From Pseudovirgaria hyperparasitica (lineage: Eukaryota), in NCBI GenBank assembly GCA_010093815.1, contig ML996573.1: a DNA stretch of 64,000 bases; one strand, written 5' to 3'. Made by a program: the position numbers and the translations under genes. The notes below the pieces were generated by a model that worked only from the letters and a program-made list of their open reading frames with translations, had not been told where the DNA came from and did no database searches. Below are positions 4,195 through 15,877 of the stretch, piece by piece (position 1 is the first letter of the stretch; each line of letters opens with the position of its first letter).

Positions 4195-4831
4195 ATAATT
4201 AGTAAACTATATATATTATAGTAGATCTATATAAATCTATATCTATAAAGATTAGATAATATATCTAATAATCTAAAAAACTAAGTGATAAGTTATAGAG
4301 TTTTTTAAATAAATAAATATTTCTAAGAAAATATTTTAATATAAGTACTACCTAGACTTATCTAACTATATTATATACTATACTAGGTCTAATTAGATAA
4401 TTCTATCTATCTAGAGATTTAGAATAGATAAAATTTATTTTATTAGAAAAATACTTATAGAACTCTTAGATTAGTAGATATTAGTATATATCTATATATT
4501 AATATATAGAACCGTTAAAGGTTTCTAGAATTAAGCTAGAAACTATAGACTTAGATAATAATCTAGATTACTAAGGGTAGCTTCCTAAAGAAAGAGAATA
4601 ATTATTAGAACTTAATCTTAGATAAAGACTAGACTTATATATATCTTAGCTAACTTAGTTAGAAGGTAGTATAATAGATAGTAAATAGTTATATACTAAA
4701 TAGATTAGCGTCTCTTTATATATATACTCTTAGATTTCTACTAAAAGGGTTTAGTAGTAATTTATTCTATAATAAAATATACTCTATTATTCTATCTAAC
4801 TATACTACTATCTAATTACTCTATTCTTATA
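4195..4831 (+). mobile_element. 5'-truncated, heavily RIPed copy of the Gypsy element family at 8494-15877 (3' internal region, PPT, and 3' LTR at 4603-4831)
   Basis: 4603-4831 aligns to the reverse complement of the 228-bp LTR. It is preceded by CTAAGGGTAGCTTCCTAAAGAAAGAGAATAAT, which matches the PPT region at 8722-8753. Homology to the reverse complement of ~8720-9140 extends back to ~4195. Confidence 0.88.
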
Positions 4832-5163: not shown

Positions 5164-6157
5164 CTAAGTTGGATCTCTCCAGTCCCATCCATGTGTTTCA
5201 CTATGCCTTCCCCATTTTGAGGAATCGGCATACCACTGCCAGGCACTCCAATCTTCCCCAGATGCGTCAGATGCGTCAGATGCAGATGCCCCAGATGCAG
5301 ATGCCCCAGATGCTTGACCTGCCTGAGCAGCAGACTTGGACTTGGAGGCATCGGCTCCTTGCTGAGGCTTTTCAGCATCTCTCCAGTCCCAGCCTTTTGT
5401 TGCACTATACCTTCCCCACATTGAGTGGTCGGCGTACCACTCCCATGGGGTCCATCCAGACACAGAGTTCTCAACTGCTTGGCCTGCTTGGCCTTGTTTG
5501 ACCTGGGCCTGGGACGTTGCATGAGCTGAAGATGCTTGTGCACGCCCACCCTGAGAGCGTGCTCCTACTTGGCCGATAGATTGTAAGCCAATCCCAAACT
5601 CGGGGGGATCCCTCTCAGCTTGTGCAATAGCAGTAGCATTCTCATGGAGATAGCCATGGCGGACTAGAGCTCGAATATAGTCAACAGTCCATTCCTGGCA
5701 TCGTCGGTTCGTTGTCTAATGCTCCTTTGTCAGCTAACATGATATATAACTCGCTATAAGTCCTAGAGTCACCTACATCGTTCACGGGAGCCATGAAATT
5801 CTCGCTAGCACGAGGGGCTTGAATCTGGAGTGCAACTCGTTCAAGTGAGCTCATTGCAGAGCTGTGCCTACTAAAGTCCTCCGTAGGTGGTTCATAGACC
5901 AGACCCTGATCAACGTGGCCTATATGGACAAGACCACGGAGCTGGTCCGAGGTACTGGTATCGTAGTTGCGCTTGAACTCGTGTGAATAGCCTGCCATTG
6001 GTGCACCCACAACGTGGATAATAGTGCCTTTGCACACCTCGTTCTTGTCTTGTGGATTCTGCGAGACATAGGCCTTGTTTGGTATGAAAAGAGCGAAGTG
6101 GTATCGCATATTGCTTGAGCGGCGATACTTGCATAGCCAGACAGGTGAGTAGGTCAT
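5164..6157 (-). CDS. DUF6540-like protein (His...Cys papain/PPPDE-like) with two C-terminal Trp-rich repeats, ~310 aa, 2 exons
   Basis: Exon 1 6157-5777 (HFALFIP...GTIIHVVGAPMAGYSHEFKRNY...APVND). Intron 5776-5716 (GTAGGT..GCTGAC..TTAG). Exon 2 5715-5164 (TTNRRCQEWTVDYIRALV...WTPWEWYADHSMWGRY...WSAWQWYADSSKWGRH). Confidence 0.75.
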
Positions 6158-6809: not shown

Positions 6810-7759
6810 CTAAGGACTCCTCCATTGCCAATACTCCAACATTGCGACTGCCTCTGTTTGATATGGCATTGTGATTTGCTGGATCCATCCTAGTGTGCGC
6901 CATTCGTGCTCATAGTCCACCCCGATGTGCATTTTACAATATTCCCAAAATTCGGGATACCAGCCTGCTTGCCGCCAATCGATTATACCATTGATGTAGC
7001 GTGACCCAACAGGACCAGCAATGATGATATTGTCCAAGTGAAGATCGGCATGAGTAAAGTATATCCTACTTGTATCACGCAGTAGGTGCCTATACGGATC
7101 CGATTGCTTGTCCAGGCGGCCTCCAGTAGCTAAATATTGGATCCGGTTATTAAAGGCCGCGACGTCTGAGAATGGGCCGGCTTCAGGCTCTCCGCGAAAG
7201 TACATATCTTGAACTGGTCCTCGAAGAACTGAGCCTAATGTTGATGTAGTTAGCAAATGGCGGTGCAGCAGCGCTCTCTTAACATACCAACAATTTCACT
7301 AGCCGGGTCCTGCGTTATAGATTGGAGAGTAGCGATGACTCCCCCGAGTTGTCCTGAGATAGCTACCTTCTCTCTTTCTTGTAGAGAGCGCCAACATGAG
7401 TCCAGGGTTTGACCTTGAATCAAGCTAAGGTAGATATAGACATAATTTCCTTCAACGCGCCATCCAAAAACTTCAGGAACTGGAACCTTGGTGCCAACTT
7501 GATGACGAATAAACATTGTAACCAAAGCCTCGTATAGTGGAACGCACGAAGAAGGTCCATATTTAACTAATAGATTGACTGCTCGAAATTCGGCGATGCC
7601 TTGGGTCTTCCCCATGCGCGCTTCGCGAACTATCGCTGGCGTAGGTAGTTCTGGAGTCGGCTCCCCATCGGAGCGGGCGCGAAAGAAAGATGTCTCACGG
7701 AAGTCTATACTATCTAGACCTATATAGGTTACCAGATCAAGGTTTTGAGCCTGCCGCAT
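6810..7759 (-). CDS. Aminoglycoside phosphotransferase (APH)-like / choline-kinase-like protein, 2 exons
   Basis: VKYG...EA...VPVPEVFGW in exon 1. Intron 7287-7235 (GTATGT..GCTAAC..TTAG). FTHADLHLDNII and IIDWRQAGWYPEFWEY in exon 2. Confidence 0.9.
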
Positions 7760-7859: not shown

Positions 7860-8430
7860 TCTCTAAATGTACTAACCATTTATTAGATTTCTTAAGCGCC
7901 TACTTAGTTACTTTATATATACTCCTAGTATATACTTATATTAATCTATATATCTAACCTTATAGATTCTATAGATAGTTATAGATAGTTATATAAATAT
8001 ACTATATATATATATATATATCTTATTATATATTACTATAATAAGTTTTTTAAATATTTAATACTAAGAATAAGATATAGATAAAGCTAAAGTCTATAAT
8101 AAAAGATAGAATACTTATAGCTACTTAAGTATAAGATATAATCTATATAAGCTATTAATAGATCTATATAGATAATAAAATTTAATATAGATATATTAAT
8201 ATAATAAGATTTTAAGTATTTATAAGATTAAGATCTATATATAAGAATAAATATACTTATCTTTGAAACTTAGACTCTTATATAATCTTAATACTAAGCT
8301 ATTAAGGTAGTAGTTATTAATTATAAGAGTCTAAGACTTTTTAGTTTCTACTAATCTACTTAGTCTATATAATTATATTCTATATATATATTATACTTTA
8401 TACGTATGATTACGTATTTATATACTAGAT
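7860..8430. repeat. AT-rich RIP relic of unidentified repeat
   Basis: Very low GC with a strong TpA excess and CpA/TpG depletion. No recognisable coding motif. Confidence 0.55.
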
Positions 8431-8493
8431 GCTTAAGAAACCCTTCTAAGACCGTACACGGGTTTGTATAAAGTTCACGTGATACAATGATGG

Positions 8494-8721
8494 TGTAAGA
8501 ATAGGGTCATTGGATAGTAGTATAGTTAGATAGAACAATGGGGTGTATTCTATCATAGAACGAATTACTACCGAACCCTTTTAGTAGGAATCCGAGAGTA
8601 TATATATAAAGGGACGCCAATCTATCTAGTACGTGACTATTTACTACCCTTTACATCACCTCCTAACTCTATTAGCTAAGATATATATAGGTCGGGTCCT
8701 ACCTAAGGCTAAGTCCTAATA
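8494..8721 (-). repeat. 3' LTR
   Basis: Aligns end to end with 15650-15877. The differences I checked are C/T or G/A transitions. Confidence 0.97.
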
Positions 8722-9205
8722 ATTATTCCTTCCCTCTAGGAAGCTACCCTTAGTAACCTAGATCGTTACCTATCCCTATATCCCTATCCTAAGTCTCGTA
8801 AGACCTTAGTTATTCTCTACGCTTCGTCTTAGATACTTACTAATATTTACTAATCTAAGATTTATATAAGCGTTTTCCTAATAAACTAAATTTTATCCAT
8901 CTTAACTTCTTATATAGGTGAGATTACCTAATTAGGCCTAGCGTATCACGTAATATAATTAGGTAAGCCCGGGTACTACCTATATTAAAATCTTTTCTTA
9001 GAAATATTCCTTTCTTTAAAAAACTTCTTAACTCTTTATAGAGTTTTTTAGATTATTAGGTATATTACCCGATCCTTATAGACATAGATTTATATAGATT
9101 TACTATAATTTAGTACGATTTACGTAATTTACTAATTTTCGTACCGTCCTTAGCTAGTAATAATATAATTCGTAATAATCTATATAAATTAATAATAATC
9201 TTAAT

Positions 9206-10187
9206 ATAGTTTCCCGAAATCTCGACGCTCTAAAGTAATTAGCGCGGAAATAGGCGCCTTCGAATAATCCCTATCTCGTATATATTACTAACATATTAAA
9301 AGCCATCGATCTACCCCGACCTAGGCCGGGCTCTAATAATCTAGCTATATATTATTATGGTTGTTACTTTCCGTCGTATATTACTTACGGTAGTACTAAA
9401 TCTATAATATACGGTACTTATATAACTAAGAAGCGTTATTACTTATAGGTATTTAAGTAAGTTCGAAGAACTTTATATAGATTTACTTATATTAGTATAG
9501 ATTACTACTAGGCCTCTAGTAACCCCTACTAATAAGGAGCGTAATACTACCGATCGTAATACCTTAGAGAAGGCTTTCTATAAGCTATATACCTAAGGTA
9601 AGGGTTACGCCTAGGAGTACAATTCTAATAAGATCCATAAGAATTTATCAGAATCTACTATAGCTATTATTACCGCGATTACTAGATAATATCGTTTTTC
9701 TTAAATCGTTATAGATTCTTACTAATATATATTAATCTCTATAATAGTACTAAAATCTCTACTACTTTAGACTTCTTTCTATATACCGGCGATATTAGAA
9801 TTCCTAGGAAAGGTTCTAGTAAAAAGGCTAAGGTTCCTTCCTCGCGCGTGCTAAAGAGCCGTAAATTTAGGGAAGATAGCTCTAATCTAGAAGTTTCTAT
9901 ACTAAAGGTATGTGGTTCTATACCGATCGTTAAATCTTTTCGCTAATTTATATAATTCTTAGCGTGCCCGCGCCGGTCCGTCCCTCTCCGTCCCGGGTCC
10001 CGCCGCTCCGTAGGTTTCTATAGAGGAGTTTATAGCTATAAGACGCGCTATATAGAATTTATAGCGTCGGAACGAAAGGCTAGAGACTTATGTTATAAAG
10101 CTCTATACTATACTAAATAAGAACTAGCGGAAGGAATTAGATATAACCATCGCGGTAATTAGTACTTCTACTCCTACTCCGACTTAA
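9206..10187 (+). pseudogene. Antisense, spliced accessory gene inside the retrotransposon (Cys-rich N-terminus, coiled-coil C-terminus), RIP-degraded
   Basis: Proposed exons 9206-9448, 9501-9685, 9748-9907 and 9963-10187 join in phase to 271 codons. De-RIP gives PCxxC...C...CGTCxTKKRxC. Intron 9908-9962 has intact GTATGT/GCTAAT/TAG signals. Confidence 0.6.
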
Positions 10188-10544
10188 TCGGTTTAGATCT
10201 ATACCGATCGGTACTAATATATCTCTTTTATCTAGCGTTTTTAGTTTTTCGGTTTTAATTTTAAAGCGATCTTACTTCTTCTAGATAGATTAGTGCGAGT
10301 TTATATAGATCTATATAGATCTTTATATTTTCTTTTAGCTTTCTTAATTTTATCTTTCTTTAATAATAACTTCTTTAATCTCTTTAGTAATCTATACCAA
10401 TCTATACCAATCAGCACCAATTTTCGATGTCCATTTCTCTTAGTAAATTATTTTTCTAAGTCTCTTTTTTAGTTAAATTTTTTAAAGTTCTAAGTTCGAA
10501 CTTTCTAAGGAAGTTCCTTAATTCCTTAGAATGTTTTAAAGATC

Positions 10545-13500
10545 TATGTCTCTTTCACCTTCTTCCTTTTAGGCGGCCGTCCTCGGCGCCGAACTATACT
10601 AAAAAACGTCGAATCGCCGTACTTTAGTATAATTCTCTATGATTCCGCGGCTTCCTTTGCTAATCGCTACTTATATACTAATATTACTACTTTACTAATG
10701 TTTATTATAGGTTCCTAAGTATCTTCGTTAGGATTATATCCTTTCTAACGAATTTTATATAGCCACGTGCTATCTTCGGCACGTTACTAGCTAAGTATCT
10801 ACTTAACTTTATAGATATCTATACCTTCTTATATAACTACTTTATATAGTATCTATTCGGAACGATCCGGTAATAATAAGGCATGAAATAGCTCGAGAAG
10901 CGTAATATAGAATATATTATCTATCTTTAACGTAGGAGGGAGTTATAACTCGTACGCCTAGTTATTAATTATATAAGTAATCTTATATAGACCTATTATC
11001 GTATAGTTAAGCTTCTTCTTTAGCCTAATACTACGAATATTCTTACTATTTAGTAAAACTTTATCCCTAACATTAAAGATCATAGGTTTTCTACCCTTGT
11101 TATGGTGCGATTTACTATAATTCATAGTATCTTATAGTAACTTTATAACGCTTCTTTACGTTTAGAATAGTTCTATAGTAATTTCTATTACTTTAATATT
11201 AGATCGTTCTACTTTGAACTAAGTCCCTAAGAACTACACATTATAGTTCCGACCGAAGTTTACTTTAAACGGACTTACGTGGGTTAACGTATGTCGGCTA
11301 TTATTATACGCGAATTCCGCGACATAGACTAACCTTACCTAGTTATTCTACTTATAGTTATAATATACGCGTAAATACGCCTCGACTATCTAATTCTACC
11401 GCTCCGTCTATCTATCTATTTATAGATAGAACGTAGTACTAAGTTTCCGCTTAATTCCTAGCGTATAGTAGAAATCCTTCTAAAATTTAGATATTATCTA
11501 CGGACCTCTATCCGAAACTATACCGTTTAGTATACTATGGAGCCGGACTACGTCACGGAGTAGTATATCTATAAGATCCGGTGCTTGGATCGTCTTCCTT
11601 ATAGGGATATAGTATAATATCTTCGTAAATCTATCTAGAACTACGAGTAAACTATTATAAATATACCTAGAATACTTATTTAGGGGTAGATCTATAATAA
11701 AATCTATTAATAATTCCTTCCATGCCTCCTTTAGCATAGGTAATAGCCTTAATTCGCCATATAGTAAGTATCTATATACTTTCGTATACTGGTAAACGTT
11801 ACACGTTTTTATATAGTCTTTTATATATTTATAAAGACCCGGCTAGTCGTACGTCCTTCGGATTAAATCGACCGTCCTTATAACGCCGAAGTACCCTACT
11901 AACGCGTAATTATACTATTCCCTTAAAATATCGATTCGTAAGCCGCCTTTTAGTACGTAGAGTCGGCCTTAGAAGTAGATCGCGTCCGATCGTCGTTCCT
12001 ACCTTAATAACTACGGCGGATCTATAGCGCTTCCTTTTATGCTTATAACTTTCTTTACTAATATATTAGAATTCTAGGTAGATTTAATTAAGTCTTTAAG
12101 GGTTTTCTTAGTTTCTTAGACGTTTATTTAGATTACTTAATACCCGCTCTAATTCCCGCGGAGAATCGCCGAAAGTGTCCTAGCTTCTAGTATTCTATTA
12201 GATAACTAGTCTTATAGTATCTAAAGTATAGTATAGTCTAACTTATACCGACTATCTACGTTATTCTATAACGATTTCTTATAATCTTCACGCCGCGATA
12301 GAGGATTAGCTTTATTCTCTCTTCTAGCTTTATATAAGATTTTAAAGTTAAATATTAATATCCACTTAGCCTAACGTACTTATCGGCGATTAAGGACCTT
12401 AGTCGATATAAAGTAACGTAGATTTACGTGATCCGATAATAATTCGATCTAATATATAGAGCCTTCTAAATAATATCGCTATTACTTAAAACTCTCGACG
12501 ATTATAAGTAGTTCCTAGTCGTGCGTGTTATAACGCGTCTCTATATCCGCTATTTTATAGGAAAAGAAAGCGACCGGGTACTATTACACCTTATCTTTCG
12601 TATCTTTATACGGTTAACTAATAATTCTAGTAATTACGAATTCTAACGCGTTAGTTTCGACCTAAATATACTTCTTAGGATTGAAATGCCTAAGAATCGG
12701 CGTAGTTATAAAGTAATTCTTTAACGATCGGAACGCATCTCGCGCTTCCGGCGTTAACTATATCTTAACCGACTTAGCTTTACGCTATACTCGCCTACCT
12801 ATAGGGATTTTACCGCCATTCTCTATAAGTTTATTAAGTAGCGCCGTAATTCGTAAGAAGCCTATAATGAATTTACGATAATAGTTTACGAAACCTATGA
12901 ATGTTCTAATTTAACGTATAGTAGTAGATTCTAGCCATTCCATGATAGTCTTTACACGCTCCAGCTCTATTTTTAGGCCGCTATATATTATAATAAAGTC
13001 GAGAAACCCAACTTCTTATTAGTAAAACTCGCATTTAGATAATTTTACGTAGAGTTTATACTGCCTTAGACGATTTAGTACTAATTTCACGTATTCTTTA
13101 TAATCCTATATACTATCGGAGTAAATTAGTATATTATTAAGATAAACTACGTAAATCACGTTAAGTAATCCTACGAGTATAGTGTTAATATATTCTTAAA
13201 ACGCTCCTAGCGCATTTATTAGCCCGAATAGCATAATAGTATACTTAAAATAACTATATCTAGTCCGAAATGCGGTTTTCCACTTATCTCCGCGACGAAT
13301 TTAAAGCCGGTAATATATATCTCGTAAATCTAGCTTTATAAAGTACTTTACCTTTATTAATTAGTCTAAAGATTCACTAACTAGCGGTAATAGGTAACGA
13401 TTCTTCTTAGTTACCGTATTTAGTACCTAATAGTTAATATATAGACGTAAACTTCCGTCTTTCTTCTTTATAAAGAGAATAGATACGCCGGCTAATAACG

Positions 13501-14310
13501 TACTATAACGTATCTAGCCTCTTTTAAGGTATTCTTTAATATATTTACGAAGAACTTCGAGTTCTAGTCTCGAAAGTAGGTAAAGTAGGCTATAAGGGAC
13601 GTCTACTCCCTCTTTAAGCTTAATCTTTAGCTTATACGGCCCGTGATTAGGGAGAAGTAACGTATCTCCTACCGAAAACATATCCGTATACTACGAATAT
13701 ACGTCGGGTAGCGTGTCTTCGCCCTAATTATTACTATCGTCCTTATCTTTATTAATGATCGATAAGAACGTAAGATAGATTAGCGATAATCGGGTCCGCA
13801 CGGTAAGGTTCTATGCCTCCTTACTAATAGTTATAACTTACTAGTATAATTTACTATGGTATCGTCGGAACGTTAATATCTTCTTCTAAAAATTAAGGAT
13901 AGGGTTTAGATGTCTAAGCTAAGGCATCCCTAGAATTATATTCTATTAGCTAATATTAGCCACGATAAATTTATTAGATATCTACTATTTTATTATCTTT
14001 AAGTCATGAACTTCGTAATTCGTTATAGCTTTATCTAAAGTTCTAACTTTATATCTATTAACTATAATAGTTCGGCTAACTTTGCCGAGATCGTACAATA
14101 ATCTACACTCCTTTATAAGAATCGACGAAATATAGTTATCTTCTATACTAGTGTCTATAAGGGCCTATATAGTTTTATTACTATTTACTATAGATAACGA
14201 TACTTTTAGTAATATTAGGTCTTTACTCGCCGGAAGGCGCTACGGCTCCTCCTAAGTATATATAATTTAGCTAAGAACGCGGTTAGGTCTCGTGTACTAG
14301 TCTATTCTTT
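10545..14310 (-). pseudogene. pol: pol (protease, RT, RNase H, integrase, chromodomain), RIPed
   Basis: ALIDT(S>G) protease (~14150). VVYL(NN>DD)ILIYS RT (~13140). VET(NA>DA) RNase H (~12650). Integrase core (ORF 11498-11737: IDFIIDLP...IVSDRGP). GPY-like module (~11000). Chromodomain YKVKQIL...WKGYNPNEDTW (~10720-10810), followed by RRRGRPPK. pol is in the -1 frame relative to gag. The 3' end is approximate. Confidence 0.93.
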
Positions 14311-15570
14311 TTTCGGATTCTTATAGTTAGGTAAAATATATTCTATTTCTCTATACTTATAGTAACGAAGTGCGCTATAATCCTACTATTTTATAATAGG
14401 CGTTATATTTAAGCCTATGCCTTATCCTTTTCCGCGTTAAGAAGCACCGCCTCGATTATTTCGGTATCCTCTTAACGCGTTTCTACCCCGATTTATACTC
14501 TTCTAGCGCTAATCGCGGTAAGGTTACTCTTAATCGAACGTATTTAATTAACCTCGTTTCTAACCTATATAGGGTTCGTTGGTTTTACCTAGAGAGCCGC
14601 GTTTCTTAAGGATGCGGTAGTATTTATTAGCTTTCTCCTCTAATTCGTATAGATAGTTAAAACTTAATAATACTATTCCTAGTCTTTCGCGGATTAACGG
14701 AAGTAGTACTTTACGAAACTAGAATATACGAATATTTTTCTATAGCGTAGGGATATTATTCTATAGGTTTTAGAGGTATTATAGTAGTTAAGTAGGTGTC
14801 TAGTTCGGTCGTTATGCCACGCTTCTTAACTTAGATAGTACCTTTCTTTCACGTTCTCTATCCGTTCCGAGAGTGTTTAGTATAAATATAGCTAAATATT
14901 CCTAGGTTATCGTAGATAGTGGCTATACTTCCTTCTATCTATCCTATTAATCGCGGGATTATAAGTCTAGGTATTATTCTCTAAACGAAATATATTATAC
15001 TTTAGTAGAAAAGAGTAGAGGGTTATCAAGGAAGTACTTTTCGTAGTCTCTCTTCTAGTCTTTCTACTTCTTTTAGTTCTTTCCTATAAATATAGTCGGG
15101 TCTTTAGGTTTCGGTATACCTAGGGAAGAAGTAGGGTAAATCGATAATAAAGTAGCTGGGTATACGGTAGATTATCGTAACTCTAATGGTAGGTAAACTA
15201 ATTCCGCCTAAATTAGTATAGGAAGTCGTCCACCTACTATCGTTCGGCGTAGTTCTTTAAGAGACTCCTTAAGTTCTCGTCTCTTTATAAGGAGTTTCGC
15301 GCGTTCTACCTATTCTTTAAGGGTTTAAATCTCTCGAGCCTAATTCGCGACGTATTCCTAAAGTTTAGTAATGGTTTATTATAATATCTCGCGTGGCTCC
15401 GCTACGACTCGTTATCCGGCTTTATATTATTAGAAGTTACTCGGTGTATCTACTATTTCTTCGTCTAAAAGCTCCGTGATTTAGTCTAATATTTCTACTT
15501 CTTAGTTAGAAACGGCTAGAATTAATACCGATTATAGAGGATCCCTATTATTTAATATAGTATTACTTAT
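14302..15570 (-). pseudogene. gag: gag with C-terminal CCHC zinc knuckle, RIPed
   Basis: LRYYKYREIEYILPNYKNPKKE* (de-RIP C-x2-C-x4-H-x4-C) ends at stop 14302-14304, just after an A-run candidate slippery site. The start is approximate. Confidence 0.8.
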
Positions 15571-15649
15571 CCCTATAGTAGATCGTGTTGACCTTCTCGG
15601 TTCTAGTTAGACTATCTTAACTATAGTACTATATAGGGAGTAATTCGAA

Positions 15650-15877
15650 TATAAGAATAGGGTTATTAGATAGTAGTATAGTTAGATAGAATAATAGGGT
15701 GTATTCTATTATAGAACGAATTACTACTAAACCCTTTTAGTAGGAATCCGAGAGTATATATATAAAGGGACGCCGATCTATCTAGCACGTGACTGTTCAC
15801 CGCCCTTCACGTCACCTCCTGACCCTGTCAGCTGAGGTACGTGTAGGTCGGGTCCTGCCTAAGGCTGAGTCCTAACA
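15650..15877 (-). repeat. 5' LTR
   Basis: 228-bp copy of the LTR, whose outer ~90 bp is nearly unRIPed. Followed by TSD GATGG. Confidence 0.97.

Follow-up and report, generated by a model that had tools for sequence, protein, structure and literature searches.

The 64,000-nucleotide stretch analysed here (the window; contig ML996573.1 of the Pseudovirgaria hyperparasitica assembly GCA_010093815.1 in GenBank) carries on its minus strand a Ty3/gypsy chromovirus of the Metaviridae, a dead copy saturated with the changes left by repeat-induced point mutation (RIP). Between the end of its pol gene and its 3' long terminal repeat (LTR) lies a spacer in which four blocks of the opposite, plus strand, at 9206-10187, can be joined in phase across three short gaps. 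These blocks are probably the remnant of a real accessory gene of the chromovirus, once interrupted by three short spliceosomal introns and since killed by RIP. The copy in the window is a dead relic, like pol, and the argument for a former gene is built on comparison with an intact element from a metagenome, referred to as L002, whose spacer holds a spliced antisense gene of the same layout.

The host element

The element stands out as an AT-rich block, with a GC content of 19-37% at bases 8000-15500 against about 50% elsewhere in the window. A direct repeat with 88% identity (8496-8719 and 15652-15875) represents the two LTRs, and local alignment extends the sure part of both to the borders given in Table 1. 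The LTRs flank pol, whose translation, with X written at stops, matches the Pfam families RVT_1 (E 1.9e-19), RT_RNaseH_2 (2.9e-17), Integrase_H2C2 (6.5e-10) and SH3_Tf2-1 (4.7e-10). RVT_1 occupies residues 311-469, RNase H (two families) 550-680, Integrase_H2C2 821-874 and rve 917-989, which is the order reverse transcriptase (RT), RNase H, integrase expected of Ty3/gypsy elements. In this RIP-damaged protein the Chromo family scores 12.4 bits (E 0.15), below its cut-off of 25.1; the closest intact relatives of pol (about 42% identity, E 1.8e-171) carry the domain (PF00385). The C-terminus of pol reads ...RRRGRPPKRKKVKET and is followed by a stop at 10544-10546. Upstream of pol, the gag region shows no Pfam family at E ≤ 1 when read with X at stops.

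Within the spacer, TA makes up 17.3% of dinucleotides, CA 0.8% and TG 0.6%, compared with 4.3%, 7.0% and 7.0% in the spacer of L002. Since CA and TG have nearly gone, RIP is near saturation, and a consensus of copies would restore little. A polypurine tract (PPT) adjoins the 3' LTR, and L002 has AAGAAGGAGGATA at the equivalent place.

Table 1. Features of the minus-strand chromovirus and of the antisense model in its spacer (window positions), followed by two classes of antisense gene found in related elements (positions on their own loci).
Feature	Position	Strand	Description or basis
3' LTR (part matching the 5' LTR)	8485..8719	-	Direct repeat and local alignment
Polypurine tract adjoining the 3' LTR	8726..8737	-	AGAGGGAAGGAA (minus-strand reading); sequence at LTR end
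Spacer, pol stop to 3' LTR	8720..10543	.	1,824 nt, RIP-saturated; dinucleotide shares
Putative exon 1 (relic)	9206..9448	+	81 codons; ATA start; stops at codons 11, 16, 81; motifs NNP-Y-x-x-Y and Y-G-T-Y-x6-Y
Putative intron 1	9449..9500	+	52 nt, GTATTT...TAG, phase 0, no clear branch site; junction matches L002 intron 1
Putative exon 2 (relic)	9501..9685	+	185 nt; stops at codons 113, 119; translation
Putative intron 2	9686..9747	+	62 nt, ATAATA...TACTAAT...TAG, phase 2, donor lost; sequence, phase as in L002 intron 2
Putative exon 3 (relic)	9748..9907	+	160 nt, stop-free, basic, Ser-rich; translation
Putative intron 3	9908..9962	+	55 nt, GTATGT...GCTAAT...TAG, phase 0, textbook fungal intron; pattern match
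Putative exon 4 (relic)	9963..10187	+	75 codons including terminal TAA, 4 internal TAG, frame uncertain; translation
pol (protease-like, RT, RNase H, integrase, SH3_Tf2-1, weak chromodomain)	10544..14401	-	Stop-riddled; Pfam, relatives
Leader and gag region, degraded	14402..15640	-	Placed by position upstream of pol
5' LTR (part matching the 3' LTR)	15641..15875	-	Direct repeat and local alignment
Single-exon cluster type (relatives)	L053, L071, L067, L051, L045, L080, L009	antisense	Six Cys with GAL4-like spacing within one open reading frame
Split-cluster type (relatives)	L038 1102-2160, L057 4879-5832, L072, L078, L059	minus strands	Cluster spread over two antisense open reading frames

The four-exon antisense model

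The four putative exons (243, 185, 160 and 225 nt) join in phase into 813 nt (271 codons), and the introns between them have phases 0, 2 and 0. All of them lie between the pol stop (10544) and the 3' LTR (8719) of the minus-strand element, which is the position of the brtn gene of certain other fungal elements, discussed in the last section. The joined frame begins with ATA, lacks an ATG, and contains nine internal stops (two TAA and seven TAG) before its terminal TAA. A sequence-only reading of the window, from which this model stems, had given about 1.8 kb between pol and the 3' LTR, the four exon positions with their 271 in-phase codons, and a need for G>A reversal at the ATG and at the donor 9686. 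Measurement bore these points out: the spacer has the length given in Table 1, the first codon is ATA, and intron 2 begins ATAATA, with 9686 in a GpG context.

Stops are rather sparse in the exons of the model. In frame, they number 3 in 81, 2 in 61, 0 in 53 and 5 in 75 codons for exons 1 to 4, compared with 6.8-11.4% per codon over the six frames of the element. The sole full match to the pattern GTRNGT..CTRAY..YAG on the plus strand of the spacer is intron 3, and a GTAAGT also occurs at 9457, 8 nt into intron 1. Additionally, codons were scored by their purine and pyrimidine classes, a measure that transitions leave unaffected and that is blind to the difference between a frame and its exact complement. 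This score favours the model frame in exons 1-3: in frame it sums to 17.3 bits, a value reached by none of 20000 shuffles, and the two remaining plus frames give -14.7 and -10.1. The favoured frame changes near introns 1 and 2.

An intact relative with a spliced antisense gene

Related elements were gathered as 80 metagenome loci found from an alignment of pol C-termini, of which the 42 with at least 1500 nt behind pol were testable for spacer genes. L002, a contig of 7,696 nt, represents an intact element: its gag open reading frame (ORF) encodes 420 aa, its pol ORF encodes 1342 aa and ends in ...RGQGRPRKRRRIVQ, and its LTR ends are 100% identical over the 107 nt present on the contig. The spacer, bounded by the pol stop at 5681 and the LTR at 7590, measures about 1.9 kb and contains an antisense gene with an ATG at 6844, exons of 294, 164, 142 and 201 nt, and an open joined frame of 266 codons. 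Its introns (44, 47 and 51 nt) all run from GT to AG, possess a branch site CTGAC or CTAAT, and lie in phases 0, 2 and 0. L002, with its identical LTR ends, thus keeps three antisense introns. The 266-aa protein has six Cys in exon 1, spaced CX2C-X14-C-X22-CX2C-X5-C, followed by a basic stretch and then by the C-terminal exon.

A word-indexed search of 5.8 billion proteins with exon 1 of L002 returned a sole match, P0123, a second copy of the same gene on another contig (compared at L002 6845-7012), and tblastn of the L002 protein against the 80 loci found itself only. The eight residues in which P0123 differs from L002 all belong to the 45 codons that precede the ATG, and the differences checked resemble transitions; in the 179 codons after the ATG, read-through intron included, there are no differences. 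As a further feature of this element, the PPT region before its 3' LTR (7559-7592) is found a second time, with 74% identity, right at the end of pol (5639-5672).

Comparison of the window model with L002

The window model and L002 have in common the number of exons and the phases 0, 2 and 0. Exon 1 of L002 reads ...AETNNPCVKC...YYKCESCTGATNCLE, and exon 1 of the window reads ...APSNNPYLVY...IIYGTYITKKRYYL(stop). The two were compared with a RIP-aware score, in which each window codon is scored by the residues reachable when the T or A of TpA is reverted with probability 0.5-0.7; the aligner is blind to introns, and codon shuffles serve as nulls. The resulting score of 57.6-62.5 stands against a null of 36.6-38.1 (standard deviation, sd, 5.6-5.9) and was reached by 3 and 2 of 1000 shuffles. 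This alignment spans window residues 15-193 and comprises 159 pairs, 31 of them plain identities and 57 reachable by TpA reversal. Five of the six L002 cysteines (C46, C49, C87, C90 and C96) stand opposite window tyrosines in TAY codons (Y23, Y26, Y69, Y72 and Y79), and the window model has one true Cys, at codon 53. Furthermore, the last 19 residues of exon 2 pair without a gap with the final residues of L002 exon 2, and 6 of them are identical.

The splice junctions fall together in the same alignment. Junction 1 shows an offset of 0 and junction 2 an offset of one column in the same phase; among 400 shuffles, junction 1 was never exact, junction 2 came within one column three times, and both never coincided. 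Ranked by raw score among 482 real ORFs from the spacers of relatives, L002 came second, and the C-terminal part of the L051 antisense gene came first. The intron positions seem, on these alignments, to be common to L002 and the very divergent element of the window; the similarity between the two sequences is weak.

Two proposals of the sequence-only reading can be judged from this comparison. That the chromovirus carries a four-exon antisense gene is backed by the layout, the phases and two junctions as in L002, but the similarity in sequence is weak and the frame of exon 4 is uncertain. That tyrosines of exon 1 go back to cysteines agrees with the five tyrosines opposite L002 Cys, but reversal of RIP does not give a unique ancestor, as the other copies of the family illustrate at Tyr-54.

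Other copies of the family

In the public run X1, 7104 contig pieces align over window 8720-10620, indicating that the family is highly repeated in the source organism. The copies differ almost exclusively by transitions, many of them paired changes between CG and TA; CpG has therefore been mutated on both strands, besides CpA/TpG. Among the 40 copy differences listed for this run, out of 118, no stop is reverted. In about half of the copy depth, the Tyr-54 codon (TAC, 9365-9367) reads CGC (Arg), so the ancestor of a Tyr codon may be Arg and not just Cys or His. Contigs of the runs X3, X4 and X5 gave no coverage of the gene, a result that carries no weight either way.

Two deletion variants occur, each in a single contig: one skips 93 nt between 9832 and 9926, the other 95 nt between 10249 and 10345. 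The window itself holds a second, truncated copy of the family at 4197-4831, in opposite orientation and with 78% identity over 637 nt to 8496-9129. It consists of the LTR and the first ~410 nt of the spacer and ends before the start of the antisense gene, and therefore provides no second reading of it. The block around this copy has a GC content of 18-21%, and TA accounts for 23.7% of its dinucleotides.

Antisense genes in related elements and the zinc-cluster question

Antisense genes behind pol are not confined to L002. Within 2.5 kb behind pol, an antisense ORF of at least 80 aa with the motif CX2CX5-7C is present in 15 of the 42 testable spacers, compared with 2 of 42 on the sense strand; relatives thus carry such ORFs at the same place, and L002 does so with the same phases. 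Six invariant Cys with GAL4-like spacing characterise the antisense ORFs of L053, L071, L051, L045, L080, L009 and L046, and in the L053 type the cluster is followed by a lysine-rich and then an acidic stretch. In the split-cluster type, one ORF ends in ...PCERCxDFGILCIPQ and the next begins with ...SCALCAKAKTACKPFD, with an intron presumed between the two Cys triads.

The C-terminal part of the L051 gene provides the highest RIP-aware match to the model. It aligns with residues 164-238, from the end of exon 3 into exon 4, at a score of 62.7 against a null of 30.9 (sd 4.7) that no shuffle in 1000 reached, and the alignment runs through a basic patch, an acidic patch, AGPS and R-x-N-E/D-R-L. 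The sisters of L051 remain at null level against the window (z of 0.9 for L053, 0.6 for L071 and 0.45 for L058). L002 gives two collinear matches to a hidden Markov model (HMM) of the L053 type, with E 0.022 for a single target, and by this profile the two types may form one superfamily.

Two other loci have antisense ORFs of a different character. The one behind pol of L015 (1341-2309, minus strand; 323 aa) looks unlike the others, with CxxC...CxxC followed by a long globular part, and may be a nested transposase-like gene. At L061 11258-12973 (minus strand), the antisense ORFs resemble the protease and RT of another retroelement inserted in the opposite direction.

The sequence-only reading had also called the N-terminus zinc-cluster-like, and taken as Zn2Cys6 this description is not supported for the type of gene seen in the window and L002. 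The spacing of PF00172, CX2CX6CX5-12CX2CX6-8C, is found neither in the six Cys of L002 exon 1 nor in the window, with its Tyr at 23, 26, 69, 72 and 79. Neither the exons of the window nor L002 exon 1 nor P0123 match any Pfam family at E ≤ 1, and hhalign of L002 exon 1 against the cluster profile of the relatives yields a probability of 1.7%. By spacing, Pfam and profile, this gene type would accordingly not be classed as Zn2Cys6. An AlphaFold model of L002 exon 1 folded alone from the single sequence is unusable, with a predicted local distance difference test score (pLDDT) of 42.8 and no residue above 50.

For the other types, GAL4-likeness is consistent, yet below every curated threshold. 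Of 14 sequences scanned, 4 match Pfam Zn_clus with 14.6-15.5 bits, where the cut-off is 21. Of the ten PDB chains listed for the cluster profile of the relatives, eight are Zn2Cys6 factors (E 0.066-5.1). With an L053-type model (pLDDT 64.9), Foldseek places Zn2Cys6 domains at ranks 1 to 24 of 27, the best match having E 0.18, a template modelling (TM) score of 0.56 and a root-mean-square deviation (rmsd) of 1.8 Å over 37 columns.

Evidence against a former gene

Several observations count against reading 9206-10187 as a former gene. The window copy offers no open reading frame, given its ATA start, its nine stops and the lost donor of intron 2. Every stop in the joined frame is RIP-revertible, and the joined frame is hence no proof: TAA, TAG and TGA can all be reached from sense codons by C>T or G>A, so any frame is open once RIP is reverted and openness tests nothing. 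Windows of 60 codons with at most one stop make up 3.85% of those in the element, and others exist elsewhere in the spacer; the poverty in stops is real but modest, within chance given the free choice of frames and boundaries. The region of exon 4 has an alternative plus frame with only 2 stops, and the G>A reversal needed at 9686 lies in a GpG context that RIP does not favour. A Markov null expects 0.20 intron patterns of the kind matched by intron 3, and 17.9% of 2000 simulations reach one. On its own, the four-exon observation lies within what chance can produce. There is some circularity in the purine/pyrimidine test, as all stops belong to the class YRR and stop-poor frames were preselected, and the test offers weak support; its positive control is also weak, since pol of the window scores -0.019 bits per codon in frame.

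The comparison with L002 has its own weaknesses. A plain local alignment scores 42, which 21 of 500 shuffles reach, and codon shuffles break up K/R runs, so matching basic patches can inflate z-scores. The third Cys of L002 (C64) lacks a partner in the window. Junction 3 falls outside the local alignment and is about 6 residues off in another RIP-aware alignment. After length correction, L002 is only fifth of the 482. An exon-by-exon RIP-aware six-frame scan fails to recover the exons and is not discriminating: exon 1 of L002 scores 40.8 at the right place but 41.9 on the opposite strand, and the best scores of exons 2-4 lie at other places. Just one intact relative of this gene type was found, and its pol, with 33% identity to that of the window (X at stops), is no closer than those of most loci.

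Database and profile searches likewise gave no homologue for the model. A phmmer search of 1.84 billion representatives with exon 1 (X at stops) gave two matches, both repeat proteins; a word-indexed search with the window frame that holds exons 2 and 4 gave no match; no window exon has a Pfam match; and the 1295 ORFs from spacers of the relatives, compared by tblastn with the spacer of the window, scored no more than 23 bits. The L053-type HMM, run against six frames of the whole window, found nothing at the locus. An IMG/VR scan with P0003 gave no match, and the ESM Atlas no usable one.

Alternative explanations

One alternative is that 9206-10187 was never a gene, the joined frame being a chance reading of a RIP-saturated non-coding spacer (3' untranslated region, PPT region) and the likeness to L002 a product of coincidence and composition. 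The revertible stops, the individually unexceptional stop-poor exons, the intron-like patterns expected by chance, the failed exon-wise scan and the lack of a homologue by phmmer, Pfam, tblastn and the family HMM all suit such an origin. Chance does not readily explain, however, why exon number and three intron phases are the same as in L002, why the junction coincidence is absent from 400 shuffles, why five of six L002 Cys face Tyr codons, why the two best of 482 decoy comparisons are true antisense accessory genes, or why antisense Cys-motif ORFs prevail over sense ones by 15 to 2 in 42 related spacers. A spacer that never held a gene is accordingly considered unlikely.

Alternatively, the spacer could have held an antisense gene of another type or with other borders, for instance a GAL4-like cluster with a coiled coil as in L051, L053, L067, L071 and L058, and with exon 4 in the other frame. 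The top RIP-aware match belongs to L051, the AGPS and R-x-N-E/D-R-L motifs are held in common, exon 4 has a more open alternative frame, and GTAAGT offers a second donor for intron 1. Yet the L051 score leans on a K-run, L053, L071 and L058 do no better than the null, the family HMM is silent in all six frames of the window, and exons 1-2 with their junctions fit L002 instead; both types may, moreover, belong to the one superfamily suggested above. Such a gene is improbable here. Considerably less plausible still is a spacer that was once sense-coding, as a third ORF after pol, or that contains a captured host fragment, with the antisense reading as its mere complement. The complement of exon 3 is also stop-free, and the purine/pyrimidine score cannot tell a frame from its exact complement, but no minus-strand frame is stop-poor across the stretch, the ORFs of relatives are antisense by the same margin of 15 to 2, as is that of L002, and the splice signals GTATGT..CTAAT..TAG can be read on the plus strand only. 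What remains the probable account is the former four-exon accessory gene of the L002 type.

Possible function and significance

Introns that lie antisense to the genomic RNA of a retrotransposon are not spliced from it and are therefore copied at each retrotransposition. An antisense gene of this kind can be expressed only from the integrated DNA copy, with its own promoter, placed within the 3' LTR or on that side of the gene. The protein made by living copies may be a small nuclear, dimerising, metal-binding regulator, which would act on the element's own LTR or chromatin and tune its transcription. This mechanism is the preferred one, and it is put forward tentatively.

A wider proposal is that fungal chromoviruses across a broad clade specify a transcription regulator of their own. 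It would be a small coiled-coil protein with a cysteine cluster, GAL4-like in some lineages, whose antisense gene is read from the 3' end of the element and keeps its introns at each retrotransposition, and it could serve as a transactivator or anti-silencing factor on the element's own LTR. As a general statement this is doubtful. If true, the introns kept between the family of the window and L002, whose pol proteins are far apart, would mean that the gene is ancient and needed, and the protein would constitute a fungal counterpart of retroviral antisense and accessory regulators. A regulator borne by a retrotransposon would also bear on how elements escape or tune silencing in fungi. As a by-product, L002 is of interest in its own right, providing an intact four-exon, six-cysteine antisense gene whose sequence is usable for tests.

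Comparison with known systems

The GAL4-type Zn(II)2Cys6 domain (PF00172) is resembled by the six-Cys antisense ORFs of related elements and not by the type in the window and L002, which has another Cys spacing and no Pfam or profile match. The proteins of the relatives also differ in being about 190-400 aa long; large fungal Zn2Cys6 regulators carry a middle homology region. In the accessible parts of the literature on antisense and additional ORFs of LTR retrotransposons in fungi, the protein type of such genes was not found described.

HBZ of HTLV-1, a human deltaretrovirus, is an antisense gene on the side of the 3' LTR that is spliced and encodes a small nuclear coiled-coil basic leucine zipper (bZIP) factor modulating transcription from the virus's own LTR. 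Its likeness to the gene of the window would be an analogy of possible mode of action; the two differ in having no sequence relation, and HBZ possesses a leucine zipper, not a cysteine cluster.

Antisense ORFs between pol and the 3' LTR, termed aORF-3R, have been reported in plants, in maize Grande1, rice RIRE2, Silene Retand and Phaseolus PvRetro13, and are conserved within families according to the portion of the source available (PMC7264820). As described there, they have the same place and orientation as the gene of the window. They belong to plant elements, and to our knowledge no sequence relation to the gene of the window exists.

The fungal parallel is brtn, whose report is said to be that of Zhao 2011 (Virology 417:248). 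As far as the available sections of the sources describe it (PMC7264820, PMC8365987, PMC4227169), brtn was reported in 2011 as an additional antisense gene of Boty-like Gypsy elements in Botrytis and Sclerotinia, situated behind pol and before the 3' LTR. By that description, brtn resembles the present gene in that both are additional to gag-pol, run in the opposite direction to it, and occupy the space from pol to the 3' LTR in a fungal Gypsy chromovirus; the present case differs in that the window copy is dead and that its intact look-alike, L002, has no relative but itself among the 5.8 billion proteins searched. The gene of the window thus belongs to an already known kind, that of brtn-like antisense accessory genes. 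With the window copy dead, its value is comparative: a second, very divergent chromovirus lineage would once have had the four-exon antisense gene of L002, which suggests that accessory genes of this sort are no accidents but persist over long times in fungal Gypsy elements.

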